A stretch of DNA of 64,000 nucleotides from Candidatus Kapaibacteriota bacterium (GTDB lineage: Bacteria > Bacteroidota > Ignavibacteria > OLB7). The translations under genes and the position numbers were made by a program. Location: positions 496 to 64,495 of the forward strand of contig JBMDXA010000167.1 in the NCBI GenBank assembly GCA_048594725.1, given 5' to 3'. This document shows positions 3,010-58,719 of the stretch, in pieces. A model generated the notes under the pieces. The model saw nothing but the letters and a program-made list of their open reading frames with translations, was not told where the DNA came from and did not search any database. Positions within the stretch are counted from its first letter, which is position 1. Every line of letters begins with the position of its first letter.

Positions 3010-3040
3010 AAGGCGGCCTCAGGGTCGCCTTCTTCGTTTC
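3010..3040 (+). terminator. Putative rho-independent terminator after pepA
   Basis: Stem AAGGCGGCC / GGTCGCCTT (one G-U wobble) with a 4-nt loop, followed by the T-rich tail CTTCGTTTCT. Confidence 0.4.
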
Positions 3041-3194
3041 TGGCCCCAACCTTGCTCTAAAAAGAGAGGTATTCCTTCACGGATCAGAAGTGGAAAAGCT
3101 CCATTTCTACCGTTGATTGGGAGCAAGTCACCGACGTTCCACGCTACTGCGCAACATAGTCACCTGAAACCCCTCATTTCTTGAAAATTTCGAC

Positions 3195-3480
3195 GGTGGT
3201 TTTCCACAGCCTTTTCCACTTATCCCGATTCTCCTCTGGAAATCCGGTGGATGCGCTGTGGTTATCCCTGTGGAAATCGCCCCTTAAAGTAATCTATCAA
3301 CACCCCTGTGGATAACTATGTACTTATCCACAACTAATCCACAGATATCCCCATCCGGTATTACCTTCTTTTCACATACATTTCCCCGCTTTTCAAGGTT
3401 TCCCACTCCATTATCCACTAATCCACAGTCTTATACACCATCATCAAACTTTATAATTATACTTATAGGAGAATAGATAG
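3195..3480. other. DnaA-box cluster plus AT-rich tract: candidate chromosomal replication origin (oriC) or DnaA-regulated region
   Basis: Two perfect DnaA boxes: TGTGGATAA at 3307-3315 (reverse orientation) and TTATCCACA at 3324-3332. One-mismatch boxes: TTTTCCACA (~3201), TAATCCACA (3337-3345), TTATCCACT (3412-3420) and TAATCCACA (3421-3429). Further 2-mismatch boxes near 3258-3275. A strongly AT-rich tract at 3430-3480 (ACTTTATAATTATACTTATAGGAGAATAGATAGGAAGAATAG) follows and may act as a DNA-unwinding element. The local GC drop contrasts with ~64% GC flanks. Confidence 0.5.
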
Positions 3481-3760
3481 GAAGAATAGCTGTGAGAAGA
3501 AGAGAGTTGTGAAACGTATCCGGTTCGTAGAGATTCCTTGAAAGCAGAAAGAGCTCCCCTCCGTATCCCACCTGACACTCTTGACAGTACCCTCTGACCC
3601 CATGGCAGTGATTTTCGATAAGAGGCGCCATACTGGCAGCTTCCCTATCATCTTCTCCTATCCAACCCCCAAATTCCTTGAAACTTTAGCCTTTTTCTCT
3701 CGTGGCATAGCTGTTGGATCATACCTACAGCACATAGAACATTTATGGAGTGAGGAAATC

Positions 3761-4204
3761 ATGGCACGACGAGACTTTGAGTGGATGCGGGAGATTCAGG
3801 ACGTTGCAAGCCGGTTCAAGGATTATTTCGAGAATTTCGAGCCCCCCACACCCCCGCAGCAGCAGGGAGAGCGTCCCGCCAAGCAGCGGTACGATCTGTA
3901 TGTGGAGGATAACAACGTCTGTGTGGAAGTTGAGCTTCCCGGAATGAAGAAGGAGGATCTGCGGATCACGATGGCCGGAGACGCCGTCGAGGTTTCCGGG
4001 GAGAGAAAGCCGGTGCGCAAGGATGGAACGCCGCTTCTCCGGGGAAATCGCAAGTATGGGGCATTTACCTGCCGCATAGAGCTTCCGAAGGAGGCCGATC
4101 TCGATCTTGCAAATGCCTCCGCCTCGTATACCGACGGAGTTCTCCGGATCATGCTTCCTCAGGCCGGTGGAAAAGGCTTTGGTTTCTCCATCCCCGTAGA
4201 GTAG
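3761..4204 (+). CDS. Hsp20/alpha-crystallin family small heat-shock protein
   Basis: ACD domain: 'YDLYVEDNNVCVEVELPGMKKEDLRITMAGDAVEVSGERK...GAFTCRIELP...DGVLRIMLPQ'. GAGGAA RBS-like motif 8 nt upstream of the ATG at 3761. The track ORF starts earlier (3581), but the upstream part overlaps the DnaA-box/AT-rich region. Confidence 0.85.
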   Translation: MARRDFEWMREIQDVASRFKDYFENFEPPTPPQQQGERPAKQRYDLYVEDNNVCVEVELPGMKKEDLRITMAGDAVEVSGERKPVRKDGTPLLRGNRKYGAFTCRIELPKEADLDLANASASYTDGVLRIMLPQAGGKGFGFSIPVE

Positions 4205-4302: not shown

Positions 4303-6207
4303 ATGGGCAAGATCATTGGAATTGATCTTGGAACGACGAACTCAGTGGTTGCCGTGATGGAGGGAACCACGCCGACCGTTATCCCGAACAGCGAGGGAGC
4401 GCGTACCACCCCTTCGGTCGTGGCATTTACCAAGTCCGGCGACCGCCTTGTGGGGCAGGCTGCCAAGCGCCAGGCCGTTACCAATCCCAAGAACACGATC
4501 TTTTCGATCAAGCGCTTCATGGGACGCACCGAGGCCGAGGTGAAGGAAGAGGAGAGGATGGTGCCGTACGAGGTGGTGGCCGGCGAAGGTGGCTCCGCCC
4601 GTGTCCGCATCGACGATCGCCTCTATTCTCCTCCCGAGATCTCCGCGATGATCCTCCAGAAGATGAAGCAGACCGCGGAGGATTACCTGGGGCAGAAGGT
4701 TACCGAGGCCGTTATCACGGTTCCGGCATACTTCAACGATTCCCAGCGCCAGGCTACCAAGGATGCGGGCGAGATCGCCGGTCTCCAGGTGCGCCGTATC
4801 ATCAACGAGCCCACGGCCGCCGCTCTGGCGTACGGTCTGGACAAGAAGGGACGTAACGAGAAGGTTGCCGTCTACGATCTCGGCGGCGGTACGTTCGATA
4901 TCTCGGTTCTCGAGCTGGGCGATGGCGTTTTCGAGGTGAAGTCCACCAACGGTGATACCCATCTCGGCGGCGACAACTTCGACCAGCGTCTGGTCGATTT
5001 CCTGGCCGATGAGTTCAAGAAATCGGATGGCATCGATCTGCGCACTGATGCCATGGCTCTGCAGCGCCTCAAGGAGGCCGCTGAGAAGGCCAAGATGGAG
5101 CTTTCGCAGATGATGCAGACCGATGTGAACCTCCCGTTCATTACGGCCACCCAGGACGGTCCCAAGCACCTGAACCTGACGATCACCCGCGCCAAGTTCG
5201 AGCAGTTGTGCGAGGATCTGTTCCGCCGCACGCTCGATCCCTGCCATCAGGCACTGAAGGATGCCGGTTTGAACCCCACCCAGATCGACGAAGTGATCCT
5301 GGTGGGCGGTTCCATCCGTATCCCGAAGATCCAGCAGCTGGTGCGCGAGTTCTTCGGCAAGGAGCCGAACAAGGGGGTCAATCCGGATGAGGTTGTGGCG
5401 ATCGGTGCGGCTATCCAGGGCGCGGTGCTTCAGGGTGACGTGCAGGACGTGCTCCTGCTGGATGTCACCCCGCTGACGCTCGGCATCGAGACGCTGGGCG
5501 GCGTGATGACGCCGATGATCCCGTCGAACACGACGATCCCGACCAAGAAGACGGAGATCTTCTCGACGGCGGCCGACAGCCAGCCCTCCGTGGAGATCCA
5601 TATCCTCCAGGGCGAGCGTCCGATGGCGAACGACAACAAGTCGCTGGGCAAGTTCCATCTCGATGGCATCCCCCCGGCGCCGCGTGGCGTTCCGCAGATC
5701 GAGGTGACGTTCGATATCGATGCCAACGGCATTCTGAACGTCTCGGCAAAGGATAAGGCCAGCGGCAAGGAGCAGTCCATCCATATCACCTCTTCGAGCG
5801 GTCTTTCCCAGCAGGAGATCGACCGTATGAAGCGTGAGGCACAGGATAACTCCGCTACCGACCGTAAGCGCAAGGAGGAGGTCGAGGTTCGCAATCAGGC
5901 TGACCAGACCGTCTTCTCCACCCGCAAGCAGCTCAGCGAGCTTGGGGATAAGATCCCGGCCGATGGAAAGGCGAAGATCGAGGCTGCCGTGGAAAAGCTG
6001 GAGAACGCGCTGAAGAGTGGTTCGTTCGATGAGATCCGTTCCTCCAAGGATGAAGTGGATCGTATCTGGAGCGAGGTTTCACAGCAGATGTACTCGCAGG
6101 CTTCGCAGGAGGGTGCACCCCAGCAGGATGGGGGCGCTGCCGGCGGCCAGGGAGGCGGCAAGAACGTCGAGGACGCCGACTACACCATCGTTGAAGACGA
6201 GAAGTAG
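4303..6207 (+). CDS. dnaK: Molecular chaperone DnaK (Hsp70)
   Basis: 634 aa with hallmark Hsp70 motifs 'GIDLGTTNS', 'DLGGGTFD' and '[11 protein letters not shown]', plus a C-terminal GGxG-rich tail ending 'EDEK'. Confidence 0.97.
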
Positions 6208-7135: not shown

Positions 7136-7522
7136 TTATCCTTCCTTCTCCTCGGGTTTCGGTCGTTTGTTGATGTAGAGTTTCAGCGGGGTTTCGCGAT
7201 TCCTGTTCGTGGTAACCTCGATCACGATCGGCTGGGTGGCCGATACTCTATCGGAGGTTACCGCCACATATATATCCCCCGGATTGTCCTTCGTTGCGAT
7301 ATTGCGTTGTACCGTTGCCAGCACGCATCCGCAACTGGGGTGTACCTGCTCGATCACCACCAGGCTGTCGCTGTTGTTGAGTACTTTCAGACGGAAGCTC
7401 TCGTACTTCGATGTGTCGGAAACGTAGTACTGCGTGATATTCAGCCGTGGCTCAGGCGTCGTCTGCTGTAGTGCGACAACGGATGTAATCAGAGCCATTG
7501 CAAGCGAAAGCATATATGTCAT
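7136..7522 (-). CDS. DUF1573-like secreted protein
   Basis: Signal peptide plus the conserved 'HPSCGCVLAT' motif typical of DUF1573 proteins of FCB-group bacteria. 1-nt gap to the downstream gene, so a three-gene minus-strand operon 7522->6297. Confidence 0.5.
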   Translation of the reverse strand: MTYMLSLAMALITSVVALQQTTPEPRLNITQYYVSDTSKYESFRLKVLNNSDSLVVIEQVHPSCGCVLATVQRNIATKDNPGDIYVAVTSDRVSATQPIVIEVTTNRNRETPLKLYINKRPKPEEKEG

Positions 7523-7964
7523 GGCTGGCCTGCCGGTATAGAGTGTTGCACGTTGGCTGTTGCTACCAAACGTCGATGAGGCGAATTTACGTAGAACTGA
7601 TGACGCATATCCGCCCCTTTCAGTTCCGCCTCCCTATCCGGTTCCAACTTTTCTTGTGCCGCACCATAGCGGGCGGCTAATCGTCGTTACCCCGATACCG
7701 GTACGGGAAGGGTCTATCACGACAGGAGATTTCCCCATCGGTTTAGCCCCGCTTTCTTTTCATGTCCTCGGAGATGAATCTTTCTCCGGTGCCTGATGTG
7801 GATAGAGAATGTGGAAAAGGGGATAACAATGCCCGGTTATCCACACCGGAAGAGGGGGAACTGGCCGAAGGCCCACCGGGGGAGTCAACAGTGTTTTCCA
7901 CTGGAGAGTTCCTGCGCTGTTCCACATCCATGGCCGGATATGCCGGAATGCTTTTCAAGAGATT

Positions 7965-9317
7965 ATGATCGATTCCAACGATACCATTGTTGCCAGGGCC
8001 ACACCGCTTGGAACGGCTGGGGTGGGGATTGTCCGGCTGAGCGGGACAGATGCGTTTTCCATTGCCGACCGCATCTTCCGTGCAGCCGGCTCCCGTTCAT
8101 TTCTGGAACTCTCTCCCCGTTTTCTGTCCGGAGGAGCCATCCTGATGGATGAGCGTATTCTGGATCACTGTCTCGCGGTACGCTTTCAGAACCCTCATTC
8201 CTTCACCGGCGATGATGTGGTAGAATTTCATCTGCATGGAAATCTCCTTATCGCCGAGCATGTCATCAACCTCTGCATTCGCCACGGGGCACGGCTGGCT
8301 ACCGCCGGGGAGTTCACCAAGCGCGCATTTTTGAACGGGAAGATCGATCTTACCCAGGTCGAGGCTCTCGCCGACGTGCTTGCCTCGGAATCAGAACAGG
8401 CGCTTTTCATAGCCCAGCGCCAGCTCCACGGCGAGCTTCGCGATCGTTTGCAGGGGTTCCGCGATCGTCTGCTGAAGGTTCTTGCCCTGCTGGAGCTGGA
8501 GCTTGATTTTGTTCAGGAGGGATATCACTTTGCCAGCATCGATCAGGTAGAAGGGCTTCTGGAGCAATTGCGTTCGTTTGTGGCCGATCTTCTCGGCACG
8601 TATCAGACCGGCGCGCGGCTGCGCCGTGGACCCAGGGTTCTGCTTCTGGGACGCCCCAATGCCGGTAAATCCAGCTTGTTCAATGCTCTTGTGGGGCATA
8701 CTCGTGCTCTGGTAAGCCCGGTGGCGGGCACAACCCGCGATTATCTTGAGGAGCCCGTGGCATACGGCGGCGTACAGTTCCGCTTTGTGGATACTGCCGG
8801 CCTGCGTTCCACAAGCGATCTCCTGGAAGCCGAGGGGGTGGCGCGGGCCATCGATCTGGTTGCCACGGCCGATCATCTGCTCTATCTGATCGATGGGGTG
8901 GATGAGGCCCATATCACTGCCGAGCTCCAGGAGATGGCTCATTTGCAGCAACAGTTCCCCGCTACGGTCTGCACGCCGGTTTTTACAAAGTCCGATCTTC
9001 GTTCCATGGGAAATCATGGCTCCCTGGCCTGCTCGGTGGGGGACCGCAATTCCCTGAAGGGAATTCTGGATCATCTGCTTCAGGGATATACCTCGGCGCT
9101 CTCCGAATCGATAGCCTTGCTCAATCACCGTCAGTTCCTGTTGCTCGACTCGATGCGCCACACTCTGGAAGGTATCTCCTATACATCCCTCTCCGATACC
9201 GAGCTGCTCTCCGATGACCTCCGTACATTGCTTCGCCCCCTCTCGGAACTCACCGGTGATGTAGTGAACGATGATGTGCTGAATACCCTTTTTTCGTCAT
9301 TCTGCATCGGTAAATGA
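7965..9317 (+). CDS. mnmE: tRNA modification GTPase MnmE (TrmE)
   Basis: N-terminal 'TIVARATPLGTAGVGIVRLSG', G-domain 'GRPNAGKSSLFNAL...DTAG', and C-terminal 'CIGK' motif that ends the protein. Confidence 0.93.
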   Translation: MIDSNDTIVARATPLGTAGVGIVRLSGTDAFSIADRIFRAAGSRSFLELSPRFLSGGAILMDERILDHCLAVRFQNPHSFTGDDVVEFHLHGNLLIAEHVINLCIRHGARLATAGEFTKRAFLNGKIDLTQVEALADVLASESEQALFIAQRQLHGELRDRLQGFRDRLLKVLALLELELDFVQEGYHFASIDQVEGLLEQLRSFVADLLGTYQTGARLRRGPRVLLLGRPNAGKSSLFNALVGHTRALVSPVAGTTRDYLEEPVAYGGVQFRFVDTAGLRSTSDLLEAEGVARAIDLVATADHLLYLIDGVDEAHITAELQEMAHLQQQFPATVCTPVFTKSDLRSMGNHGSLACSVGDRNSLKGILDHLLQGYTSALSESIALLNHRQFLLLDSMRHTLEGISYTSLSDTELLSDDLRTLLRPLSELTGDVVNDDVLNTLFSSFCIGK

Positions 9318-9350
9318 CTTCATGTTCCACGTGAAACTTTCTATCTGTCT

Positions 9351-11171
9351 ATGTTGAGGTACGATGTTATTGTCATCGGTGGCGGGCATGCGGGGATCGA
9401 AGCATCCTCGGCAGCCGCCCGTATGGGATGCCGGACCCTCCTTGTGACGGCTGATCTCTCTGCTATCGGACGGCTTTCCTGCAATCCCGCCATTGGCGGA
9501 ATGGCGAAGGGACAGCTTGTCTGCGAGATAGATGCTCTGGGAGGGGAGATGGGGCGGCTGGCGGATCTCTCCGGCATACAGTTCAAGATGCTGGGAACGT
9601 CCAAGGGGCCGGCGATGTGGTCGCCACGGTCGCAGAACGATAAGGATCTCTATCCTCTCTATGCCCAGAATCGCTTGAAGGAGATAGAGCTCCTCGATCT
9701 GCTTGAGGGGATGGTTGAGGATGTCCGATTGGAAGATGGCCGTGTGGCAGGTATTCGTCTGGGGGATGGGACCGATATCTCCTGCTCGGCGCTCATTATC
9801 TGCTCGGGAACCTTTCTCTGTGGCCGTATGCATACCGGAGCCGAACAGACCGCCGGTGGAAGAGTGGAGGAGGCATCTGCCGAGGGGTTGAGCGGATCAT
9901 TGCGGGATGTGGGATTTGTGACCGGCCGGCTCAAGACCGGGACACCACCCCGGGTCAGCCGCCGGTCGCTGGACCTCTCGCTCTGTGATGCTGATGGAGG
10001 AGATCGTAATCCGCAGCCGTTTTCACGTTCCACAGCATCGGTAGAGAATAGAATAGAGTGCTATCTCACCTCTACAACCCCTGAAACGCACGAGATTCTC
10101 AAAACCGGTTTCGACGATTCGCCGATGTTTACCGGGCGTATCACTGGAACCGGACCCCGCTACTGTCCCTCGATAGAGGATAAGATCCATCGTTTCGCGG
10201 AGAAGGAGAGCCACCAGATCTTTCTGGAACCAGAAGGACTGGATACGGATTCGGTGTATGTGAATGGTTTTTCCACCTCGTTGCCCAAGGAAGTGCAGCT
10301 GGCAGGACTGCGGAGCATACCCCCTCTGGCGCAGTGCGAGATCCTTCGCTATGGCTATGCGGTAGAATATGATTACTTCCCGTCGTATCAGCTTCATCTC
10401 ACCATGGAGAGCAAGCTGGTGGGAGGTCTGTTCTTTGCGGGACAGGTGAATGGAACTTCCGGATATGAGGAGGCGGCCGCTCAGGGACTGATTGCTGGCA
10501 TCAATGCGGCGTTGAGCACACAGGGACGGGATGCCTTCATCCTCAGTCGTTCCCAGGGCTATATCGGGGTTCTGATCGATGACCTGGTAAACCTTACGAT
10601 CCTGGAGCCGTACCGGATGTTCACATCGCGCGCTGAATACCGTCTTCTGCTGCGCCAGGATAACGCTGATCTGCGGCTGACCCATCTGGGCTACCAGCTC
10701 GGTCTTGTAGGGGAGTCTCAGATGGAACGAGCCCGCCGAAAGCAGGAGGGGGTGGATGCTGCTGTGGAACTGCTCCGGAACCGGTCGGTGCTGCCGGCTG
10801 ATGCTTCGCAGGCGACACGTGCCTGGCAGTTCCTGAAACGTCCTGAGGCGGGCGTAGAAGATGTGCTGGCATTGGTGGACCGGGATGATCCGTTGCATAC
10901 CATCCTCGCCAACCGGGATGTTGCGGAACAGATCGATATCATCGCCAAGTACGACGGGTATATCAAACGGCAGATGGAAGAGGTGGAGCGCTTTGCTGCA
11001 TCGGAGAATACCCTGATTCCCCCTGCCATCGATTATAACCGCATCCAGTCGCTTTCATCGGAGGCCAGGGAGAAGCTGACGAAGGTACGTCCCCGGTCCT
11101 TGGGGCAGGCCAGCCGCATCGCCGGCGTAAGCCGTTCCGATCTCTCCGTTCTGACCCTTTATATTCGCTAG
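9351..11171 (+). CDS. mnmG: tRNA uridine 5-carboxymethylaminomethyl modification enzyme MnmG (GidA)
   Basis: FAD fold 'YDVIVIGGGHAGIEAS'; 606 aa with the conserved GidA C-terminal domain. 33 nt downstream of mnmE, so an operon. Confidence 0.95.
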   Translation: MLRYDVIVIGGGHAGIEASSAAARMGCRTLLVTADLSAIGRLSCNPAIGGMAKGQLVCEIDALGGEMGRLADLSGIQFKMLGTSKGPAMWSPRSQNDKDLYPLYAQNRLKEIELLDLLEGMVEDVRLEDGRVAGIRLGDGTDISCSALIICSGTFLCGRMHTGAEQTAGGRVEEASAEGLSGSLRDVGFVTGRLKTGTPPRVSRRSLDLSLCDADGGDRNPQPFSRSTASVENRIECYLTSTTPETHEILKTGFDDSPMFTGRITGTGPRYCPSIEDKIHRFAEKESHQIFLEPEGLDTDSVYVNGFSTSLPKEVQLAGLRSIPPLAQCEILRYGYAVEYDYFPSYQLHLTMESKLVGGLFFAGQVNGTSGYEEAAAQGLIAGINAALSTQGRDAFILSRSQGYIGVLIDDLVNLTILEPYRMFTSRAEYRLLLRQDNADLRLTHLGYQLGLVGESQMERARRKQEGVDAAVELLRNRSVLPADASQATRAWQFLKRPEAGVEDVLALVDRDDPLHTILANRDVAEQIDIIAKYDGYIKRQMEEVERFAASENTLIPPAIDYNRIQSLSSEAREKLTKVRPRSLGQASRIAGVSRSDLSVLTLYIR

Positions 11172-11253: not shown

Positions 11254-11406
11254 CGCTAATCCGTTGTACTTTCAGTCTTCCCCGTATTGGTGGTCGGATC
11301 GGAAATTATCTTCGAAAAAGAGCCGTAATCGCCGTATTGTTTCACGTGGAACTTTTCGTCAAGTCATTGAACCAGCGTGAATTCCATTCCTGTCAGAGAT
11401 AAACGT

Positions 11407-12312
11407 ATGAAGTTGATGATCGTAGGAGCAGAGGGAAGTCTGGGGGAAAAACTCCAGTCGATTGTGCGAAAGGAGACAAGCTGGACGCTGATCTGCGTTA
11501 CCCGCAGAAAGGTAGGTTCCAACCACGTGGAACTTCCCTTTGAGAGCGGCAATAAGGCTGCCTGGAAGGCACTGTTCGAACAGGAGGAATGGCGTCCGGA
11601 TGTGATCGTCAATGTTGCCGCCATGACCAATGTGGATGCCTGTGAAACCATGCGGGCCGAAGCCTGGAATACCAATGTGGGGCTGGTAGAGACCCTGGCT
11701 GGGGAGTGTAAAACGCATGGGCTCAAGCTGGTGCAGGTGTCGAGCGATTATATCTTCGATGGAGCGGATGGACCCTATCTGGAAACATCCACCCCCAATC
11801 CGATCAATTATTACGGGAAGACCAAGCTGGCAGCGGAAAACACCTGCATCAAGCTGGGTATCGATTATACGATCATCAGAACGATGTGGCTGTATGGGGA
11901 ATCGGGAGGAGGGAGGCCATCGTTCGTGCAATGGCTGGTGGATGCTCTGATGGCCCGTGATACCGTTCGGGTGGTCACTGATGAATTCGGCAATCCAACC
12001 CTTCTCGATGATGTTGCGTACGGCATAATCCGCGCGATCGATAAGAAGCTGCGTGGAATCATCAATATCTCCGGTCCCGATCTTCTCTCGCGATGGGATT
12101 TCGCGCTGGCAATCGCTGCGGCATATGGTATCAGCGCCGCGGAGCTTATTCCGGTAACGTCCGCCGATCTGCAACGGCCCGCACGGCGTCCGCTCCGGTC
12201 AGGTCTGATAAGCCTGAAGGCACAGACAAGCCTGGGGCTCCGTCTTACTCCGCTGAAGGATGGCCTTGAGATAACGAAGATTCTGGAACAGCGCATGGCG
12301 CGCGAGCTCTAG
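11407..12312 (+). CDS. rfbD: dTDP-4-dehydrorhamnose reductase
   Basis: Rossmann 'MKLMIVGAEGSLG', 'VNVAAMTNVDACE', catalytic 'YGKTK' and 'VQVSSDYIFDG' match RmlD. Start taken at the MKLMIVG methionine; the track ORF begins 30 nt earlier. Confidence 0.8.
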   Translation: MKLMIVGAEGSLGEKLQSIVRKETSWTLICVTRRKVGSNHVELPFESGNKAAWKALFEQEEWRPDVIVNVAAMTNVDACETMRAEAWNTNVGLVETLAGECKTHGLKLVQVSSDYIFDGADGPYLETSTPNPINYYGKTKLAAENTCIKLGIDYTIIRTMWLYGESGGGRPSFVQWLVDALMARDTVRVVTDEFGNPTLLDDVAYGIIRAIDKKLRGIINISGPDLLSRWDFALAIAAAYGISAAELIPVTSADLQRPARRPLRSGLISLKAQTSLGLRLTPLKDGLEITKILEQRMAREL

Positions 12313-12382
12313 AGCGAGGGCGGAGGAAGGGGCAATGCGGAAGTGTGCTGCCAGGACCCATCAGGGAATAATTGGAAGAAGA

Positions 12383-13150
12383 ATGAACGTAACCTTTCTG
12401 GGGAGTGGAACATCCTCCGGAGTACCCACGATCGCGTGTAGCTGCGCGACCTGTCTCTCAGACGATCCTCGCGATAAACGCCTCCGGCCTTCCATATGGA
12501 TCAGGAACGGGGAGGAGAGCGTGGTGATCGATACCTCGAGCGATTTTCGCCAGCAGTGTCTCCGGCAGGGAATAACCTCGCTGGATGCGGTGGTCTATAC
12601 CCATCACCATTTCGATCATATCGCCGGGTTCGACGATCTGCGTGCGTTCAACTTCAAGATGCGCCGGCCGATCCCGGTCTATATGATGCCGGAAACCCTC
12701 CGCAACATGCAGATGGTATTCAGCTATGCGTTCGGCCAGAATATCACCGTCGGTAGCAGTGTTCCCCTGATCGATGTCCATACGATTCTGGATGATCCCT
12801 TTACCATCGGCTCACTGGAGCTGATTCCGCTCCATCTTCAGCATGGCAGCATGAGGGTGAACGGCTATCGTATCGGCTCGTTCGCCTACTGCACCGATTG
12901 CAACGTCATCACCGATATGGCTATGGAAAGGCTTCAGGGAGTGGAAACGCTGGTACTGGATGCACTGCGATTCACCACGCATCCCACCCATTTTTCCCTG
13001 ACCGAAGCAATCGAGGCCGTTTCACGTATCGGAGCCACTACCACCTACTTCACCCATATCGCCCACGATATCAAGCATGCCGATGTGGAGCCTACGCTAC
13101 CGGAAGGTGTTCATCTGGCCTACGACGGATTGGAACTGAACATCGATTAG
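12383..13150 (+). CDS. MBL-fold metallo-hydrolase (PhnP/RNase Z-like)
   Basis: 'VTFLGSGTSSGVP' and metal-binding 'YTHHHFDHIAGF'; about 255 aa. Confidence 0.8.
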   Translation: MNVTFLGSGTSSGVPTIACSCATCLSDDPRDKRLRPSIWIRNGEESVVIDTSSDFRQQCLRQGITSLDAVVYTHHHFDHIAGFDDLRAFNFKMRRPIPVYMMPETLRNMQMVFSYAFGQNITVGSSVPLIDVHTILDDPFTIGSLELIPLHLQHGSMRVNGYRIGSFAYCTDCNVITDMAMERLQGVETLVLDALRFTTHPTHFSLTEAIEAVSRIGATTTYFTHIAHDIKHADVEPTLPEGVHLAYDGLELNID

Positions 13151-14651: not shown

Positions 14652-14818
14652 GTATCGCCTTGCAGGGCGCTCATTGCAGGATCACAGACGTAACACAGGC
14701 AGCCTTCTGTCTGTGTTTTCTTTTTATATCTACCTTAAAGTAAATCGTTAACCGGATCATATAACTGCTATCGCTGCTTGCATTTATCCACACTCAGATG
14801 TTACTTTAAAGTAAGGCT

Positions 14819-17800
14819 GTGTTGATGCGCATATACTCTGACCATATATATATATCCCCGCTACGTAGAAGGGGCTTGACGATCGTGCTGCTTATGATGG
14901 GCAGCGCCGCCGTCAGTACCCTCCATGCGCAAAGCCGTCTGGAGGCAATCGGGGAGATGTATCTCGATAGAAGCGACCTGCTCGGGAGCTATTCCTGGGG
15001 GGTGCTGCCAGGCGATCTCCCCGCAATAGACAGAGCAACCTCCTGGGCGCCGGAGGCACTTCTCTGGCATGGGGAGCAGCGGATTGAACTGGGACAGTTG
15101 GGGCCGGCCCGCTTCATGATGAGCGAGGTGGCCGAGCAATACCCGAACACCTCCTCGGCAACGATGGCCCTGTTGAACCAGGGAATCATCGCCATCCGGA
15201 ATGGTGCCTACGGTAAGGCCCGCATCTACTTCGATGAGACCATCATCAAGGGGAGCGCCGAGCACACGCCCGAGGGGGAACGGGTGGCAGGGACCGCGCT
15301 CTACCTGATAGCCTATACGCATGCTCTGGAAGGAGAGCAGCCGGTTGAAAAGACCGTGGCTCTGCTGGAAGATTTCCTCGACACCTATCCCGGCAATCCC
15401 CGCGAAGTGGATGCCCTCTATATGCTCGGCGAAATAGCCGAGATGAAAGGAAACTATGAGAGGGCCATTGACCATTACGACCGGATTATCCGCAAGGGGG
15501 CCGGGCGGCTGTATTTCGAAGCGCGGAACCATCGCGCACAGAGCCTGGCGCGCCTGGGCCGCTACCGTGACGCCCAGGATGAGCTGGCGGGAATAGAGCG
15601 CGATCTCTACAGTGCCCCGGCTGCCGGTCTGGAAAAAAGCAGGTTCGAGGCCATCCGCGCCGATTGCATGCTTCTACGCGGGGAGATAGAGATTGCTCTG
15701 GGGAATCATTCCGCTGCCGAAGCGGCATTCGTGGGGCTGATGAACGGAAGCGAGCGTTATCGGCGCACGGGGCTTCTGGGGCTGGCCGATACCTATCAGT
15801 CGGCGGGACGGAACGATTCGGCGCTTGCCATCTATTCCCGTCTGGTGGCCGATGATACCAGCGATGCGGTCTTTCAGCGTGCGGAGTTCAACCAGGCCAT
15901 AGCCCTGCGCGGTCTGGGACGCACCGAGGAGGCCACCACGATCTTCGAGTCGATCGGCGGCGACAGCCTTCACCTGATGAACGATCGTGCTCTGGTGGAA
16001 CTGGCGATGATCCGCTACCGGAATAAGGATTATCCCGCCGCGGCTGCGGTGCTGAACCGGGCCATCATTCTGGCAAAGGATGACCGGACCCGCATCCGCG
16101 CCTATATGATAAAAGGGGTGGTGGAGCTTGGGGGCGGGGAACCGGCCAGAGCTATCGAGTCGTTCGATGCCGCTGAAAAACTGTCCGTGAAGTTCAAGGA
16201 ATATAAAGGGCCGGAACTGGCCGAAGCCAAGCTGCTGAGCGGTATCACGATGGCGCGAACCAACCGCTCGGCCGAGGCGATCACGACGCTCAACCGGTTT
16301 CTGGATCAGTACCCGGCTCATACCGGCCGCGATGAGGCGCTCTACTGGCTGGGGGAATCGCACTATCAGTCGGGCCTCTATAAAGGGGCCGTGGATGTGA
16401 TGGAGGATCTGATCGAACAGTATCCCGGCTCTCCCAGAGTGGCCGATGCGATGTATACCACAGGATGGGCGCATTTCCGGCAACGGCGGTTCGATCGCGC
16501 CGATGCCTCCTTCTCGCAGCTCATCAAGGCGTTTCCCACATCCGGGTACGTGGCCGAGGCACAGCTCCGCCGCGGCGACGGGTTCTATCTGGCAAAACAG
16601 TATGCCGATGCCGCACGGGCCTATAGCCAGGTGCGGAAGATGAATCCCACAGCCCAGGAGAGCACCCACGCCGCCTATCAGGAAGCGCTGGCCTATATGC
16701 AGCTCGGCGATCTGGCGGTGGCCGATACCCTCTTCCGGAACTTCGCCACCTGCAATACGGCCACGACTCTGGCCGATGATGCGCTCTATCGCCGCGGGGA
16801 AATCGCCGTTCGCCGCTCGGAATATGCTCAGGCGGTCGGGGTGCTGAAGCCGCTGCTCGGCCGGGGCGTCAGAGAGGAGTTGCTTCCGGCTACGTATGGC
16901 GCGCTGGGGGATGCCTATCTCAAGCTGGGTGATCTTCAGGGTGCCGCCGGTGCCTATTCCATTATCGCGGAGCGCTTTCCCAAGAACAGCGCCGCGCAGA
17001 GCGCGGGGCGGGGGATAAGCGATGCGGTTGCCGCATGGAAGAACGATGGGCGCTCCGCTGAATGCGGAAGCGGCGAGGAGTTCCTGGCAATGGCACGCGC
17101 GCGGGTGTATCTGGAGACCTATCATCCTTCCGAAGCGCTCCGGGAGTACCGGATGCTGGAACAGGGAGCCGCCGAGGGAGTCTGCCGGCAGCAGATCCTG
17201 CTGGGTATCGGCCGGAGCCATCTGGCCGGGGGGGATCTCAAGGCCGCGGTCGATACCCTCCGTCTCCTCGTGGAACGCTACCCGGACGGGCGATTCCTTC
17301 CCGGTGCGCTTCTGGCGCTGGGAGAGGCGGGGCTGGCCGGAAGAGATTCGGCGATGGCGCGCGCCTACTACGAGCAGGTGCGGACCTCCTATCCCGATAG
17401 CAGCGAATCGGTTCGTGCCCGGCTCCATCTCTCGGAGCTCTATGCCGCGGCCGGGATGCGGGATACTGCCGGGAGCATCCTCTATGAAAATGTGACCCGC
17501 TTTCCCAACAGTACGGTGGCGCAATGGTCGTGGCTGGGGCTGGCAAAGGTGGATACCGCTGCCGGGCGGCGCGATACGATCGTTACCATGCTTCGGGCTC
17601 TTGCCGGCCGTAGCGATACGCTCGGTGCGGAGTCGGCATTTCTGCTGGCCCGCATGGCGGCCGATGGTGGCCGGTTGCAGGAATCGGTGGATATGCTGGA
17701 AGATTTGAGCACCCGGTTCACGGGGGAGACCTCGCTGACAAGCCGTGCCGTGCTGGCTATCGGCGAGGCGTACCAGCGGATGGGAGCGCCGGAGAAAGCC

Positions 17801-17893
17801 AGATCGGCGTACGAGAGGATTCTCCGCTTCTACTGCGATGAAACCCTGAGAAAACAGGCCGAGCAACATATACAAGCCTTGAGCAAGCTATGA
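14819..17893 (+). CDS. Large secreted tetratricopeptide-repeat (TPR) protein
   Basis: 1024 aa with a GTG start and an N-terminal signal peptide '...LTIVLLMMGSAAVSTLHAQ' (no lipobox Cys). Repeated 'YP.s..a.eAly.lGe...' TPR/YbgF-like units run along the whole length. The stop overlaps the next gene by ATGA. Confidence 0.8.
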   Translation: MLMRIYSDHIYISPLRRRGLTIVLLMMGSAAVSTLHAQSRLEAIGEMYLDRSDLLGSYSWGVLPGDLPAIDRATSWAPEALLWHGEQRIELGQLGPARFMMSEVAEQYPNTSSATMALLNQGIIAIRNGAYGKARIYFDETIIKGSAEHTPEGERVAGTALYLIAYTHALEGEQPVEKTVALLEDFLDTYPGNPREVDALYMLGEIAEMKGNYERAIDHYDRIIRKGAGRLYFEARNHRAQSLARLGRYRDAQDELAGIERDLYSAPAAGLEKSRFEAIRADCMLLRGEIEIALGNHSAAEAAFVGLMNGSERYRRTGLLGLADTYQSAGRNDSALAIYSRLVADDTSDAVFQRAEFNQAIALRGLGRTEEATTIFESIGGDSLHLMNDRALVELAMIRYRNKDYPAAAAVLNRAIILAKDDRTRIRAYMIKGVVELGGGEPARAIESFDAAEKLSVKFKEYKGPELAEAKLLSGITMARTNRSAEAITTLNRFLDQYPAHTGRDEALYWLGESHYQSGLYKGAVDVMEDLIEQYPGSPRVADAMYTTGWAHFRQRRFDRADASFSQLIKAFPTSGYVAEAQLRRGDGFYLAKQYADAARAYSQVRKMNPTAQESTHAAYQEALAYMQLGDLAVADTLFRNFATCNTATTLADDALYRRGEIAVRRSEYAQAVGVLKPLLGRGVREELLPATYGALGDAYLKLGDLQGAAGAYSIIAERFPKNSAAQSAGRGISDAVAAWKNDGRSAECGSGEEFLAMARARVYLETYHPSEALREYRMLEQGAAEGVCRQQILLGIGRSHLAGGDLKAAVDTLRLLVERYPDGRFLPGALLALGEAGLAGRDSAMARAYYEQVRTSYPDSSESVRARLHLSELYAAAGMRDTAGSILYENVTRFPNSTVAQWSWLGLAKVDTAAGRRDTIVTMLRALAGRSDTLGAESAFLLARMAADGGRLQESVDMLEDLSTRFTGETSLTSRAVLAIGEAYQRMGAPEKARSAYERILRFYCDETLRKQAEQHIQALSKL

Positions 17894-21576: not shown

Positions 21577-22821
21577 ATGCGAATATTACACACCGCCGAC
21601 TGGCACCTCGGGCGTAAACTCGAAGGGCGCAGCCGGCACGATGAACAGCAGCAGGCATTGGATGATATCTGCCGCATCGCCGATGATGAGGGCATCGACG
21701 TGGTGCTGGTGGCCGGCGATATCTTCGACGCCTACAACCCTCCCGCCGAGTCCGAAGCGCTCTTCTACCGGACCATGATCCGCCTCTCCGATGGCGGGCG
21801 GCGGGGTGTGGTGATTATCGCCGGCAACCACGACAGCCCCGATCGTCTCATCGCCTCCGATCCCTATGCGCGTGCCCTCGGGATAACCACCATAGGCTAT
21901 CCAAAGGATATCCCCGCACTCTACGATAACGGCCACGACCGGGTGGCGTGCGTGGAGTCCGATCCATCCTTCATCCGCCTGCGGCTTCCCGCCTCCGGAC
22001 GGATTCTTACCCTCCTGGCGCTCCCGTATCCGTCGGAATCGCGGCTGCGAGAGCTTCTGACGGCCGATATAGAGGATGAGCGCCAGGCCACCATCGATTA
22101 CAACAGGCGGGTACGGCGGTTCATGGAGGAGGGGGAACGCCGCTTTCTCCCCGGCGAGGCCAATCTTGTTGCCAGCCACCTGTTCGTGGCCGGCGGGGCC
22201 GAATCCGAATCGGAACGCCCCATCCAGGTGGGGGGGCTCTATACGGTCGATCCTCTCAGCTTCCCTCCGGAGTCCTCGTATGTGGCGCTGGGACATCTCC
22301 ATCGTCCGCAGACGCTCCTTGGCCGGGATGAACTCCCGGTACGCTACTCCGGATCGATTCTTCAGTACAGTTTCAGCGAGGCGGAGCAGGAGAAATCGGT
22401 AACGGTGATAGAATGCGACGGCACCGGATGCACCCATCGCTCCATCCCGCTCGGCAGCGGGCGCATCCTCCGCCAATGGTCGGTGGATGGCCTGCCGGAA
22501 CTGGAATCCCGTCTTGCCGCCCTCCACGGTGATAACTGGCTCTCCATCACCGTAACGCTCGATGATCCCCTTCCCCCGGACTATATGGGAAATCTCCGCA
22601 AGGCCCATCCCGGCATCGTCTTCTGCAACAGCCGTTACCGGATCGAGCAGCAGGATGAAGCCGAAGCGGCGGTCGGCATAGCACACCTCCCGCTGGAGGA
22701 ACAGTTCCGCCGGTTCGTGGCATCACGGTTCAACGAGCCCTGCAACGATGCCGTGCTCCGGTTGTTTCTGGAACTTGCCGCCGGCGACCGGAGCGATGCC
22801 GGGTCCGGCACGAAACGCTGA
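21577..22821 (+). CDS. sbcD: Exonuclease SbcCD nuclease subunit SbcD (Mre11-like)
   Basis: Calcineurin-like phosphoesterase motifs 'ILHTADWHLG', 'VLVAGDIFD', 'IIAGNHD' and 'GHLH'. Confidence 0.9.
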   Translation: MRILHTADWHLGRKLEGRSRHDEQQQALDDICRIADDEGIDVVLVAGDIFDAYNPPAESEALFYRTMIRLSDGGRRGVVIIAGNHDSPDRLIASDPYARALGITTIGYPKDIPALYDNGHDRVACVESDPSFIRLRLPASGRILTLLALPYPSESRLRELLTADIEDERQATIDYNRRVRRFMEEGERRFLPGEANLVASHLFVAGGAESESERPIQVGGLYTVDPLSFPPESSYVALGHLHRPQTLLGRDELPVRYSGSILQYSFSEAEQEKSVTVIECDGTGCTHRSIPLGSGRILRQWSVDGLPELESRLAALHGDNWLSITVTLDDPLPPDYMGNLRKAHPGIVFCNSRYRIEQQDEAEAAVGIAHLPLEEQFRRFVASRFNEPCNDAVLRLFLELAAGDRSDAGSGTKR

Positions 22822-22911
22822 TCGTCGCCGTTCCCGGTCTATCTCTGTTCGCAGGTCTACGGAATCATCATTCTTACGGCCACTCACCCTCCCTCATGTA
22901 CCGCAGGTGTT

Positions 22912-25900
22912 ATGAAGCCTCTTCATCTTCAGATATCAGGACTCAACAGCTTCCGCGACCGGGTGTCGATCGATTTCGATCGCCTGCTGATCGGCGGGCT
23001 GTTCGGCATCTTCGGTCCTACCGGCAGCGGTAAATCGACCATCCTCGACGCCATGACCCTGGCCCTGTACGGAAAGGTGCGCCGTGCTCCGGGAGGAACC
23101 CAGGGGATCATCAACGTCAGGGAGCCGAACTGCACGGTCAACTTCACGTTCGAGATCGGGAGCAACGGGGGCCGTAACCGCTATACCATCGACCGGGTTC
23201 TGGGACGGAACAAGACCGGGGGGATAGAAACCAAGCGGATGCGGCTGCTGAAGTATACCGACGGGATTCCGGTGCCCATCGCCGAGAAGAAACAGGAGTT
23301 GAAGGAGAGCGTGCAGGATATCGTCGGGATCAACGTGGAGGATTTCCTTCGCGCCGTGGTCCTGCCGCAGGGAGCATTTGCCGAGTTCCTCGGACTGGAA
23401 ACCAGAGAGCGCGGGGCCGTGCTCCAGCGGTTGTTCGGCCTGCATGATCTCGGCGACCGGCTTACCTCCCTGCTTCGCGAGCGTGCCTCGGAGCTGGCGA
23501 GCGCCCGCGCCGAGGTGGAGGGGCAGTTGCAGCATCTGCGTGCCTATGATGATGCCGCCCTGGCTGCGGCCGGGGATGCGCTGGTGAGGGCAACCGAAGA
23601 GCAGCGTACCGCCCGTGCCCGTCTGGCCGAAGCGGAGGGGAGATACCGGGAGGCGGCCCAGCTCCGGGAATATCTGGAGGAATACCGGCTGCTGCTGGTG
23701 TCGGATGCCGACCGCAGCTCCCGCGCAGGGGAGCTGGAGGAGATGCAGCGGAGAATCGCGCTGGCGGAGCGGAGCAATGCCATTCTTCCCGCAATCGAGG
23801 CGTATCGCAATGCCCGGCTGCGCTACAAGGATGCGGAGCTGCGCCATGCGGAGGCCCTTGCCGCCAGAACCGCGGCGGAAGCCCGGCTTGCACCGGCTCG
23901 CGAGCGGCTGGATGGAGCATCGGCACTGTACGATTCCCGCTACGACGTGCTGGGTGCGGAACTGGAAGTGCTGGGCCGGGTACGGGAGGGCAAACAGGTT
24001 CTGCTGGAGAGCCGGGAACGATTACAGCGGATCGAGGCCGATCATGCCGCCGCCTGCGAGCGATGCGCGGAGATCGCCGTGCGCCGCGATAGCGCCGCTG
24101 CCATGCTGGAAGAGGTGGAGCAACGGCTCGCCGCCGCCGAGCGGGAACTGGCGGCACAGAATGTTTCCAGCGGCGAGCGCCAGCTTATCGGCGAATTGAA
24201 TCTGCTGATCCGCGAGATACGACGGTTCGATGAGGAGATAGCCGGTAAGGAATCGGAGATCCGGTCGTTATCGGAAGAGCGTGAAGGGCTTGCCGCTGCC
24301 GTGCGCGATGCCCGGGAGCAGGAGGAGGAGGCCGGTTCGGCTGCCGGGCGCCTGGCCGCCGAACGTGATCTTCTGAAAGGGGAACTGGAGCATACGCACG
24401 CCGCACGTGAAACGCTCCGGGAACGTTCCGCAATCCTGCATCATGGACTGGCCGAGCTTGAAGGGTTCGAGCGCGAGGCCGGCAATCTTCGCACGACCCT
24501 GGCGAAAAAAGGCTCCGATGCGGATGGTGCCCGCAGAACGCTCCAGGAACTGGATGTCCGCCTGAAGGAATCCACATCCTATGAATCGCTGCTGTGGGGG
24601 GAGCGCGAGGCCGTGGCGGCGCTTCGGGAGGATGCGCGCCAGCGCCTGGCCCTTGCCTCGATGCTGGAGCATCTCCATGATGGCGATCGCTGCCCGCTCT
24701 GCGGTTCCTTCGATCATCCCGATCCGTACGATGGAGGGGACGGCGAGGCCGCGGAGCTTGCCCAGCTGGACCGCGAACTGGCCCGTCTGGATGGAAAAGT
24801 GCGCGAATCGCAGGAGCGTGTCCGCGATGTCCAGCAGTCGATAGCGATTGCGGCAACCGGGTTGGAGGGGGCGGAGCTGGCGCTGGAGGGGGCTCGCGAG
24901 CAGCTAGCGGGAACTGAAGCCGCTGCCGCCGCCGTGCTTCAGACATTGATCGACTCCCCTCTTTCCGGTATCGCCGGATTGCGGGAGCTGATAGCCTCCC
25001 TGGCCGAGCAGGATCTGGAGATGAAGGGGAGGATCGAGCGCTCCGGAATCCGTCTTGCCGAACTGGAGGATGATCTGGCCGCCGCCCGGTCGCGTGCCCT
25101 TGACGCCGCCGGAATTCGTACACGGGCCGAGGCCGATCTTGCCGTCCGGGAGGGACTGCTGGGCGATCTCCGCGGGAAATTTAGTGAACTGAACGCTTCT
25201 CTGGCCGCCGAACGCCATGCGTTCGAAACCCGCTCGGCCGGACGCCGGATGGAGGATCTGGGAGAGGAGCTTCAGGCGATGCAGCAGCGCGACCGCCGGG
25301 CGGAGGAGCTGCGCGCGCAGATAGAGACCGAACGCGCTCTGGCGCAGCGCGAACGGGAACGCCTTACCGCGCTCGACCGCCAGGTACGCGAGCAGGAGGG
25401 AACACGCGATCGTGCCGAGGGGGAACGCCGCAGCCTGGAGGCGGAGATCAGCCGGATGCGCTCGGAGCTTTCCGGGAAACTGGATGCCGTGCTGGCCGAA
25501 GCCGAACGCGGAACGCCGGTGGAGAAGCTGATCGGCCTGCGCCAGCAGGAGCGGCTGCAGGTGCAGCGCCAGCGTGATGACGCCCGGAAGATCTACGAGG
25601 AGGCCGTGCTGGCGGGGGTGGCGGCAACGGAGAGGGTTGACAATCTATGGAAGGATTTCTGCCGCGAGGAGAAGGCGTGCGATGAGGCCGGGGAGAGATC
25701 GCGCGATCTCATCAGCGGGGGAGGATTTGCCTCGGCCGATGAAGTGGAAGCCTCCGCGCTTCCCCGCGAAGAGCTGGACCGGCTTCGTAGCGATGCTGCC
25801 AGGGCAGGCAAGGAGCTGGATGAGGCCCGCCGCCGCCTGGAAGAGCTGCGGGAGAATATCGCCGGCAGGGAAATTTCCTCTGCGGAGCTGTCGGGGCTCG

Positions 25901-26547
25901 GCGAGGAACTGGAACGCTCACGGGCAGCCGATGAGGAAGGGATGAAGGGGCTTGGCGGCGCACAGGAGCGCCTGCGCGAATGCCGCGAGAAGAACGCCGA
26001 GTGGAACCGGGTGCGGATGCAGGATGTGGCGGGGGCCGAAAATGCTGCCACCGCCGACCAGCTTATGAAGTACCTGCGGGGCAATGGCTTCGTCGATTTT
26101 CTCGCCAACGAGCGCCTCTCGGAGATCTGCCGCCGGGCAACGCTCCAGCTGCGGAGTCTTACCGTGGGCCGCCTGGAGATAGGTGCCAGACCGAAAGATG
26201 GATTCTTCATCCGCGATAACGGGAACGGAGCGATCGAACGCTCCCCAAGTTCCCTCTCCGGAGGAGAGACCTTCCTCGTCTCCCTGTCGCTTGCCCTTGC
26301 GCTCTCCGAGACCATCCAGCTTGGGCGCTCGCCGCTGGAATTCTTCTTCCTGGACGAAGGGTTCGGCACGCTGGACAACGATCTGCTGGAAACGGTGATG
26401 AGCTCCCTGGAACGGCTCCGCTCGGAGCATCGCGCCATCGGCGTCATCTCGCATGTGGCACAGCTTCGCGAGCGTATCCCCAGGCGCCTGATCGTCACCC
26501 CCCCCTCGGAACAGGGGGGCTCCACGATCCGCTACGAGGTGGCGTAG
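22912..26547 (+). CDS. sbcC: Exonuclease SbcCD ATPase subunit SbcC (Rad50-like)
   Basis: Walker A 'GPTGSGKSTILDA', very long Ala/Glu/Arg/Leu coiled-coil, central zinc hook 'CPLCGS', C-terminal ABC signature 'LSGGETFLVSLSLALAL' and Walker B 'FFLDEGFGTLD'. Confidence 0.9.
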   Translation: MKPLHLQISGLNSFRDRVSIDFDRLLIGGLFGIFGPTGSGKSTILDAMTLALYGKVRRAPGGTQGIINVREPNCTVNFTFEIGSNGGRNRYTIDRVLGRNKTGGIETKRMRLLKYTDGIPVPIAEKKQELKESVQDIVGINVEDFLRAVVLPQGAFAEFLGLETRERGAVLQRLFGLHDLGDRLTSLLRERASELASARAEVEGQLQHLRAYDDAALAAAGDALVRATEEQRTARARLAEAEGRYREAAQLREYLEEYRLLLVSDADRSSRAGELEEMQRRIALAERSNAILPAIEAYRNARLRYKDAELRHAEALAARTAAEARLAPARERLDGASALYDSRYDVLGAELEVLGRVREGKQVLLESRERLQRIEADHAAACERCAEIAVRRDSAAAMLEEVEQRLAAAERELAAQNVSSGERQLIGELNLLIREIRRFDEEIAGKESEIRSLSEEREGLAAAVRDAREQEEEAGSAAGRLAAERDLLKGELEHTHAARETLRERSAILHHGLAELEGFEREAGNLRTTLAKKGSDADGARRTLQELDVRLKESTSYESLLWGEREAVAALREDARQRLALASMLEHLHDGDRCPLCGSFDHPDPYDGGDGEAAELAQLDRELARLDGKVRESQERVRDVQQSIAIAATGLEGAELALEGAREQLAGTEAAAAAVLQTLIDSPLSGIAGLRELIASLAEQDLEMKGRIERSGIRLAELEDDLAAARSRALDAAGIRTRAEADLAVREGLLGDLRGKFSELNASLAAERHAFETRSAGRRMEDLGEELQAMQQRDRRAEELRAQIETERALAQRERERLTALDRQVREQEGTRDRAEGERRSLEAEISRMRSELSGKLDAVLAEAERGTPVEKLIGLRQQERLQVQRQRDDARKIYEEAVLAGVAATERVDNLWKDFCREEKACDEAGERSRDLISGGGFASADEVEASALPREELDRLRSDAARAGKELDEARRRLEELRENIAGREISSAELSGLGEELERSRAADEEGMKGLGGAQERLRECREKNAEWNRVRMQDVAGAENAATADQLMKYLRGNGFVDFLANERLSEICRRATLQLRSLTVGRLEIGARPKDGFFIRDNGNGAIERSPSSLSGGETFLVSLSLALALSETIQLGRSPLEFFFLDEGFGTLDNDLLETVMSSLERLRSEHRAIGVISHVAQLRERIPRRLIVTPPSEQGGSTIRYEVA

Positions 26548-46226: not shown

Positions 46227-48866
<2,640 letters not shown>

Positions 48867-57875: not shown

Positions 57876-58105
57876 GAGCTATCGGCTTCCATGAGCGGAG
57901 AATTCTGCGACTGTTGCCATATCGCTCCTCCGGGTATCCCGGAGGGCCGGCGTAAGATACAAGGCGGCTGCCTGATTCCAGCACGATTGCCGCCTCTGCG
58001 GCGGGACGCGAAGCGGGCAGCAGCGTGCCTGGTGACTACTAAACTACAAATCCCCTTCTCGCATGCGAAAAGGGGATCTGCACATGTTCATCCGGTGATG
58101 ATCGA

Positions 58106-58453
58106 TCAGCCCTTTGCGTGCTCGACGATCATCTTGAACACCTCCGGCTCGTGCATGGCGATCTCGGCCAGCACCTTCCGGTTGATGACGAGATTCTTCT
58201 TGTTCAGCGCGTCGATCAGGCGGCTGTAGGTAGTGCCGTTGAGACGCGCCGCAGCGTTGATGCGGACGATCCAGAGGCGGCGGTAATTCCGCTTCTTGAG
58301 GCGGCGGTCGCGGAAGGCGTGCGAAAGACCCTTCTCGACGTGGTTCTTGGCAATCGTCCAGACGTTGCTACGCTCGCCCCAGTATCCCTTGGCAAGCTGT
58401 AATACGCGCCGGCGGCGTTCACGTGAGGCGACCTTGTTCTTTGAACGTGGCAT
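58106..58453 (-). CDS. rplT: 50S ribosomal protein L20
   Basis: '[26 protein letters not shown]...[13 protein letters not shown]'. Confidence 0.97.
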
Positions 58454-58719
58454 AGTTCTCCTTTACAGATTTTGAGAGTTGTTCAGGCGCAGGCGAGTAT
58501 CTGTGCGGCCTAGTGCCGTCGCCCCAGACGCATCGGAAGCCGGGTGCTGCCATCAAAAAGGAGGATGGCGGCGGGGCTGCCGGAGAGCATGGGCACATCG
58601 CCGTGCGCGGTAGTTATGATGCTGCGATTTTCTAGTGAAAACCGCATCCGCCTTCTATGGCGGAGGAACCATTCCCAACGGATCGGGAGGATGGCGGGGT
58701 ATCGGCGGGGAGGCCGGAA

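Follow-up and report, generated by a model that had tools for sequence, protein, structure and literature searches.

The question raised by this locus was whether a dense group of DnaA boxes, lying between pepA and hsp20-dnaK in a stretch of DNA of 64 kb (hereafter the window, meaning the whole stretch that was analysed), represents a chromosomal replication origin uncoupled from dnaA or, as the original prediction had offered as the other option, a strong DnaA-titration or regulatory site controlling hsp20-dnaK. From the features described below, the pepA-hsp20 spacer (about nt 3200–3490) is very probably the DnaA-dependent oriC of this Kapaibacterium-like bacterium, with dnaA located elsewhere in the genome. 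The genes and the terminator-like structure surrounding the boxes were as follows.

1475–2962, + strand: pepA, encoding an M17 leucyl aminopeptidase (Pfam Peptidase_M17, 6.6e-128); left neighbour, reads towards the candidate origin
3010–3031, + strand: terminator-like hairpin with a T-run, 3′ of pepA (consensus scan only)
3761–4204, + strand: hsp20 (Pfam HSP20, 4.5e-15); right neighbour, reads away from the candidate origin
4303–6207, + strand: dnaK (Pfam HSP70, 5.7e-270); right neighbour, reads away from the candidate origin
7965–9317, + strand: mnmE, annotated window gene
9351–11171, + strand: mnmG/gidA, annotated window gene

Annotation and coordinates thus agreed with the flanking genes named in the original prediction (pepA, hsp20-dnaK, mnmE and mnmG), and mnmE and mnmG/gidA are classic origin-proximal genes. 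The pepA-hsp20 spacer is 798 bp long and has a G+C content of 46% versus 60% for the whole 64-kb window, the latter value replacing the approximately 64% given previously. A sigma-70 promoter scan of the spacer gave no match, Rfam detected no RNA family in the spacer or in the window, and neither parA nor parB was present among the annotated window genes.

Every box listed in the original prediction was recovered at its position by a mismatch scan, and the AT-rich tract that had been said to follow the boxes proved to be both the top 50-mer in A+T and the weakest 60-mer of the window. The following features were recognised in the spacer.

3307–3315, − strand: DnaA box TGTGGATAA, perfect match
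3324–3332, + strand: DnaA box TTATCCACA, perfect match
Start at 3200, + strand: DnaA box TTTTCCACA, at most one mismatch
Starts at 3335 and 3419, + strand: DnaA box TAATCCACA, at most one mismatch
Start at 3411, + strand: DnaA box TTATCCACT, at most one mismatch
3200–3439, both strands: DnaA-box array (candidate DnaA-oligomerisation region), 13 boxes with at most two mismatches
3307–3332, opposed strands: facing perfect pair, TGTGGATAA, 8 bp, TTATCCACA (mismatch and repeat scans)
3411–3439, + strand: boxes nearest the unwinding element, TTATCCACT directly followed by AATCCACA (9+8 tandem, 3411–3427), then TTATACACC (3431–3439)
3429–3490, no strand: candidate DNA unwinding element, AT-rich and of low duplex stability

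The starts and strands of the boxes in the array were 3200+, 3212+, 3220+, 3257−, 3269−, 3294+, 3307−, 3324+, 3335+, 3345+, 3411+, 3419+ and 3431+. Boxes with at most one mismatch to TTATCCACA numbered 20 in the 64-kb window versus 7.2 expected, and six of them, including the two perfect ones, fell within 228 bp (nt 3200–3427), the maximum in 300 block shuffles being three per 250 bp. With two mismatches allowed, 13 boxes were found in nt 3190–3440 versus approximately 0.63 expected, and the density of the cluster is far above chance. Enrichment extended as far as 15.5 kb into the window (15 boxes with at most one mismatch versus approximately 1.7 expected), and the other 48.5 kb was at chance level (5 versus approximately 5.4). 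The direct and inverted repeats of the spacer were all derived from DnaA boxes. The facing perfect boxes at 3307 and 3324 are presumed to be high-affinity anchor sites, while those on the side of the unwinding element (3324, 3335, 3345, 3411, 3419 and 3431) run nearly all in the same direction with a spacing of 8–12 bp within groups, and the boxes at 3411, 3419 and 3431 are all oriented towards the AT-rich tract, which is on their 3′ side.

The unwinding element directly abuts the last boxes of the array. Within it, nt 3429–3478 contain 38 A+T out of 50, the highest of any 50-mer in the window, and nt 3429–3488 form the least stable 60-mer of the 64 kb (−65.2 kcal/mol versus a mean of −91.2 with an sd of 5.5, i.e., 4.7 sd off). 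The element possesses six consecutive NTN triplets at nt 3450–3467, which read as NAN DnaA-trios when taken on the − strand, a threefold tandem of the hexamer TTATAN (nt 3451–3468), and two copies of GAATAG (3471–3476 and 3484–3489), 13 nt apart, within a conserved purine-rich tract. According to the rule proposed for a basal unwinding system (PMC8287927), a box with at most two mismatches is followed, after a spacer of 0–16 bp, by at least three DnaA-trios. In the window, the box at 3431–3439 is followed by a 10-bp spacer and then by the six triplets, and the element-proximal box conformed to the rule in 9 of the 11 genomes compared (see below). As 22.5% of all boxes with at most two mismatches (1.4 Mb of loci) also passed, the rule is permissive and the match was counted as consistent with an origin. 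The purine-rich tract (3468–3489) was considered as a possible set of trios for a right-hand box and rejected, there being no box with at most two mismatches and nothing conserved at that place.

A PepA scan of species-representative genomes yielded 80 loci, all from MAGs, the best match being 85% identical. These loci were labelled Candidatus Kapaibacterium, Chlorobiota, Ignavibacteria or Bacteroidota, some evidently mislabelled; Kapaibacterium belongs to Bacteroidota according to the NCBI taxonomy. The gene order guaA-pepA-spacer-hsp20-dnaK, with mnmE-mnmG further downstream, was common to ten of them (L001–L008, L017 and L060; PepA identity 61–85%), and a DnaA-box cluster directly after pepA was present only in these ten syntenic loci and in none of the other 70. 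When the eleven spacers (the window and ten relatives) were aligned, the boxes appeared as conserved islands amid diverged sequence, with a majority fraction of 0.72 in box columns versus 0.52 in non-box columns (p = 1e-12). At positions 3200, 3212, 3294, 3307, 3324, 3411 and 3419, a box with at most two mismatches was kept in at least 8 of the 11 genomes, the one at 3307 being retained in all 11 and that at 3324 in 10. Position, order and orientation of the array were conserved across the ten syntenic relatives. The common order begins on the left with two tandem + boxes, some − strand half-sites and a box, continues with the facing pair TGTGGAnAAC/GTTnTCCACA, another + box and a spacer of about 70 bp, and ends on the right with GTTATCCACTnATCCACA, a TTATACAC-like box, the AT-rich stretch and the purine-rich tract (GAGAATAGAnAGGAAGAA); the tandem boxes and both tracts were conserved in the eleven-spacer alignment.

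Two of the relatives deviated in detail. In the closest one, L001, two paralogous ORFs for small secreted proteins (132 and 130 aa; nt 11928–12759 of that locus) are inserted between pepA and the array, so that the array remains on the hsp20 side, and extra DnaA boxes occur next to pepA at 11488, 11508 (perfect) and 11651. In the most divergent syntenic relative, L008 (also L161; contig CAVQEG010000001.1 of 3,201,621 bp, with the homologous spacer at about 3,000,752–3,001,493), the array is the weakest of all and lacks any perfect box, the AT-rich tract is weaker, and the parS sites have been kept.

The absence of dnaA from the window, another element of the original prediction, was upheld by tblastn with an E. 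coli DnaA query: no dnaA was found in the window or in the 80 PepA loci. The same query recovered a true DnaA, confirmed by Pfam, in a locus of classical organisation (L102, see below). No Bac_DnaA domain was present within 22 kb to the left of the spacer in five relatives, and the window was clear to +60 kb; adjacency to dnaA/dnaN, a common but non-defining feature of oriC, was therefore not found in the regions covered. Two parS-like sites were identified to the right of the spacer.

9323–9338, no strand: parS-like ParB site TGTTCCACGTGAAACT, intergenic between mnmE and mnmG
11338–11353, no strand: parS-like ParB site TGTTTCACGTGGAACT, intergenic, downstream of mnmG

These sites flank mnmG, 6–8 kb to the right of the spacer; 0.06 sites with at most three mismatches would be expected by chance. 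The consensus of parS is TGTTNCACGTGAAACA, and parS is placed close to oriC (review PMC7022226). Eight of the 10 syntenic relatives, like the window, had sites with at most two mismatches, mostly flanking mnmG, and none was detected in the 70 non-syntenic loci (about 1.2 Mb). A distant control set comprised 80 metagenome mnmG loci among the matches listed, which share 46–56% MnmG identity and are not members of the clade. Among these listed loci, parS flanks mnmG in 59 of 80 (88 of the 105 sites adjoin mnmG), and dnaA lies within 10 kb in eight. Two loci, L102 and L091, show the classical succession of dnaA, boxes and rnpA-yidC-mnmE-parS-mnmG-parS. Since a parS-flanked mnmG occurs in distant loci including classical origin regions, the mnmE-parS-mnmG-parS block marks the origin region, and within this region of the present clade no conserved box cluster other than that of the pepA-hsp20 spacer is accompanied by an unwinding element. 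In a further distant mnmG locus (L140), 12 boxes with at most one mismatch were observed in 400 bp at nt 7429–8040, adjoining the least stable 60-mer of that locus (7352); this cluster, about 5 kb downstream of mnmG and with no dnaA in view, is another probable origin.

For the analysis of strand asymmetry, the left arms were lengthened through an InfB search that gave contigs from five clade genomes with left arms of 22 kb. The left arm carries rimP-nusA-infB-rbfA-truB-ribF-rpsO-pnp-guaA-pepA on the + strand, mostly preceded by several − strand genes. The G/C skew at four-fold sites, expressed on the + strand, was as follows.

L162 (L002): left + genes −0.055, left − genes −0.098, right arm +0.074
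L164 (L003): left + genes −0.064, left − genes −0.198, right arm +0.121
L165 (L004): left + genes −0.114, left − genes −0.048, right arm +0.015
L166 (L060): left + genes −0.069, left − genes −0.106, right arm +0.124
L161 (L008): left + genes +0.051, left − genes +0.146, right arm +0.179; no switch

In four of the five lineages the left arm was negative on either gene strand and the right arm positive, which indicates that the polarity changes at the spacer or close to it. For + genes, the left value was lower than the right value in all 11 sequences. In L008/L161, either the origin has moved or the local composition is atypical. The right arm of the window itself had a weakly positive four-fold skew (+0.011 for + genes and +0.031 for − genes); the skew was still negative for genes up to about 9.3 kb, possibly owing to the codon bias in hsp20 and dnaK. 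When all codon positions were counted, GC skew tracked gene orientation and did not switch at the spacer. In the window the effect of the coding strand (approximately 0.035) was larger than that of replication (approximately 0.02), so that total skew, GC3 skew and the counts of genes per strand were all ambiguous, and the usable skew signal was confined to four-fold sites on the longer left arms. With 27 genes on the + strand and 17 on the − strand, the window has little leading-strand bias and is uninformative for the origin in this respect. About 14 kb of left genes (rimP-nusA-infB...pnp-guaA-pepA) point at the spacer, so that a leftward fork would be met head-on. On the right arm, clpB and infC-(rpmI)-rplT-pheS (46227–48866 and 56856–59545) are on the − strand, and with an origin at 3.3 kb they would likewise face the fork head-on.

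Between the unwinding element and hsp20, one further site was predicted.

3703–3717, + strand: sigma-54-type (−24/−12) promoter TGGCATAGCTGTTGG of hsp20-dnaK, the only match in the window

In 10 of the 11 genomes the corresponding motif, TGGCAY-N5-TTG, preceded the hsp20 start by 47–83 nt, and 10 of its 12 matches in 541 kb fall at hsp20. Judged from this motif, the distribution suggests that the main chaperone operon may be under RpoN-dependent control in the lineage. Inverted repeats of the TGACA/TGTCA type were observed upstream of the promoter (3560–3650) and may be sites for an enhancer-binding protein, and no CIRCE/HrcA operator was found in the window. The last DnaA box ends at 3439, 264 bp before the sigma-54-type promoter, with the unwinding element between them; the boxes neither overlap nor closely flank the hsp20 promoter, an arrangement different from that of a DnaA-regulated promoter. 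The predicted promoter is a separate regulatory module lying outside the origin proper.

Smaller groups of boxes were observed elsewhere in the window. A group of three DnaA boxes, including a perfect one, occupies less than 50 bp at nt 7797–7845, where a DUF1573 gene (7136–7522, − strand) and mnmE diverge, and recalls the jag-thdF DnaA-box cluster of B. subtilis. It was considered as one half of a bipartite origin and rejected, being absent in all nine relatives that have mnmE in the locus, and is therefore regarded as a lineage-specific DnaA site. A perfect box at 14784–14792, flanked by the direct repeat CTTAAAGTAA/CTTTAAAGTAA, adjoins a stretch (14704–14792) that ranks second in the window both for A+T content and for low duplex stability, and lies just upstream of a gene for a 1024-aa TPR protein (14819–17893). 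Further to the right, sbcD and sbcC (21577–26547) are located upstream of a gene (27510–30206) encoding an 898-aa WD40 beta-propeller-repeat protein, for which many WD40 families with eukaryotic names gave very strong matches.

Features of oriC found in the spacer and its surroundings were the box cluster, the flanking AT-rich element with an oriented box, agreement with the unwinding rule, the parS/mnmE/mnmG context and non-coding conservation. Of the two options in the original prediction, that of an oriC uncoupled from dnaA gained support from the conservation of array and unwinding element in ten relatives, the box-unwinding layout, the parS sites flanking mnmG, the four-fold skew in 4 of 5 lineages and the lack of dnaA from −22 to +60 kb. 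DnaA titration or regulation directed at hsp20-dnaK became less likely, since this operon has its own conserved sigma-54-type promoter (10 of 11 genomes) about 260 bp past the last box. Clusters of DnaA boxes that are not origins are known, those of B. subtilis lying mostly close to the origin; that the array is one of these, of the datA/DARS or B. subtilis type, and titrates or recycles DnaA near a real origin elsewhere, for example at dnaA, is considered unlikely. Such a role would agree with L008, which keeps a weak array without a skew switch, and with the dnaA-linked origins of sister lineages, but such elements are not known to have an adjacent unwinding element, whereas here the weakest duplex of 64 kb abuts correctly oriented tandem boxes. 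Moreover, nine or more box positions, together with the AT-rich and purine-rich tracts, are conserved down to 61% PepA identity, and the skew at four-fold sites switches at the spacer in all lineages but one of the five.

DnaA is also a known transcription factor, the array does lie upstream of hsp20-dnaK, and other small box groups are situated in promoter regions (7797–7845 before mnmE and 14784 before the TPR gene). It is nevertheless very improbable that the boxes constitute a control region through which DnaA regulates hsp20-dnaK, or pepA: 13 boxes with an unwinding element far exceed known DnaA operators, pepA ends ahead of the array at the terminator-like hairpin, and hsp20-dnaK has its own control module, a conserved sigma-54-type promoter at a distance of 264 bp from the last box and with inverted repeats upstream, so that the array is unlikely to act as a DnaA operator. 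Dual origins have reportedly been predicted in other bacteria, according to a preprint, and the eroded array of L008 (no perfect box, weaker AT-rich tract), which shows no skew switch, could be taken as a sign that the chromosome has two origins, of which the spacer is one, or that the spacer is a former origin in decay, a dnaA-linked site having come to share initiation or to take it over. This can hardly be expected for the window, however, where the array is intact, has two perfect boxes and adjoins an unwinding element that is the strongest; the polarity of the skew changes in the four nearer lineages, and nothing observed points to a second origin.

With the spacer taken as oriC, initiation might proceed as follows. 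DnaA made elsewhere would bind the two perfect boxes at 3307 and 3324, and ATP-DnaA would then occupy the weaker boxes, which on the side of the unwinding element are mostly in the same direction. From the tandem 9+8 boxes the filament of DnaA would be led to the NAN triplets on the − strand and would open nt 3429–3490, the least stable duplex of the window, followed by helicase loading and bidirectional departure of the forks. The new origins would be segregated by ParB bound at the pair of parS sites on either side of mnmG, 6–8 kb to the right, while transcription of pepA would meet the terminator ahead of the array and the sigma-54 promoter would drive hsp20-dnaK away from the origin. A more elaborate scheme, in which stress-induced hsp20-dnaK transcription or local DnaK is coupled to initiation at the dnaA-separated origin, or in which two origins exist, one of them dnaA-linked, appears decidedly doubtful.

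Origins away from dnaA are well known, for instance in E. coli and Caulobacter, and the locus would accordingly be a further example of this arrangement. The order pepA, oriC, sigma-54 promoter and hsp20-dnaK, followed at some distance by mnmE-parS-mnmG-parS, would provide a natural example of a relocated origin, as in E. coli, that has retained the tandem-box-plus-triplet unwinding module; knowledge of origin function is unchanged by it. For an uncultured group of Bacteroidota at family level (Kapaibacteriaceae-like MAGs), the candidate supplies a well-supported assignment of the origin, which would be missed by a dnaA-adjacent search. It could be used to orient and rotate MAG assemblies, to estimate growth rate from read depth (peak-to-trough ratio), for replichore and strand-bias analysis, and in comparing the movement of origins relative to dnaA.

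In E. coli, oriC lies between mnmG/gidA and mioC, 42 kb from dnaA. The candidate origin resembles it in being apart from dnaA, with mnmG nearby and reading away and with pepA reading towards the origin as mioC does. Further similarities are an element that is A/G-rich on the TTATCCACA strand and contains short repeats spaced by about 13 nt, boxes of the TTATACAC type (like R2), and, as with R1, a box that points at the AT-rich element, the orientation of R1 having been derived by us from the oriC sequence and confirmed by the E. coli row in the supplement of PMC8287927. Unlike E. coli oriC, the window spacer is without GATC/Dam sites and without known IHF or Fis sites, its boxes are on one side of the unwinding element only, and it is flanked by pepA and hsp20-dnaK; the window also has parS sites close by, whereas E. 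coli is not known to have a ParABS system.

The same supplement (Pelliciari et al. 2021, PMC8287927) gives the basal-unwinding-system sequences 3′ to 5′ on the DnaA-bound strand, and boxes 6/7 of B. subtilis, when converted to the TTATCCACA strand, read TTATCCACA directly followed by AATCCACA, then GGCC and (CTA CTA TTA ...). The tandem 9+8 format of these incC boxes is shared by the window, with TTATCCACT and AATCCACA versus TTATCCACA and AATCCACA in B. subtilis, as are the triplets, whose middle base is conserved on the strand bound by DnaA, and the AT-rich stretch that follows. The window differs in having a third box, TTATACACC, between the tandem pair and the triplets and no GC-rich spacer, in triplets that are mostly TAT/AAT instead of GAT, and in an element that is not between dnaA and dnaN.

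The predicted origins of Ignavibacterium album and Melioribacter roseus, members of the same superphylum, also have TTATCCACA-type boxes and a tandem-box-plus-trio layout, but they are situated between dnaA and dnaN, whereas here no dnaA occurs in the −22/+60 kb covered. As these sister lineages have dnaA-dnaN-linked origins, the dnaA-distant arrangement is probably derived. Finally, the location of mnmE-parS-mnmG-parS a few kb from the box cluster is similar to that in the classical region of L102 and L091, in which dnaA is followed by rpmH-rnpA-yidC-mnmE-mnmG-parS, except that the place of rnpA-yidC is taken in the window by hsp20-dnaK together with two small − strand genes, and that of dnaA by pepA.
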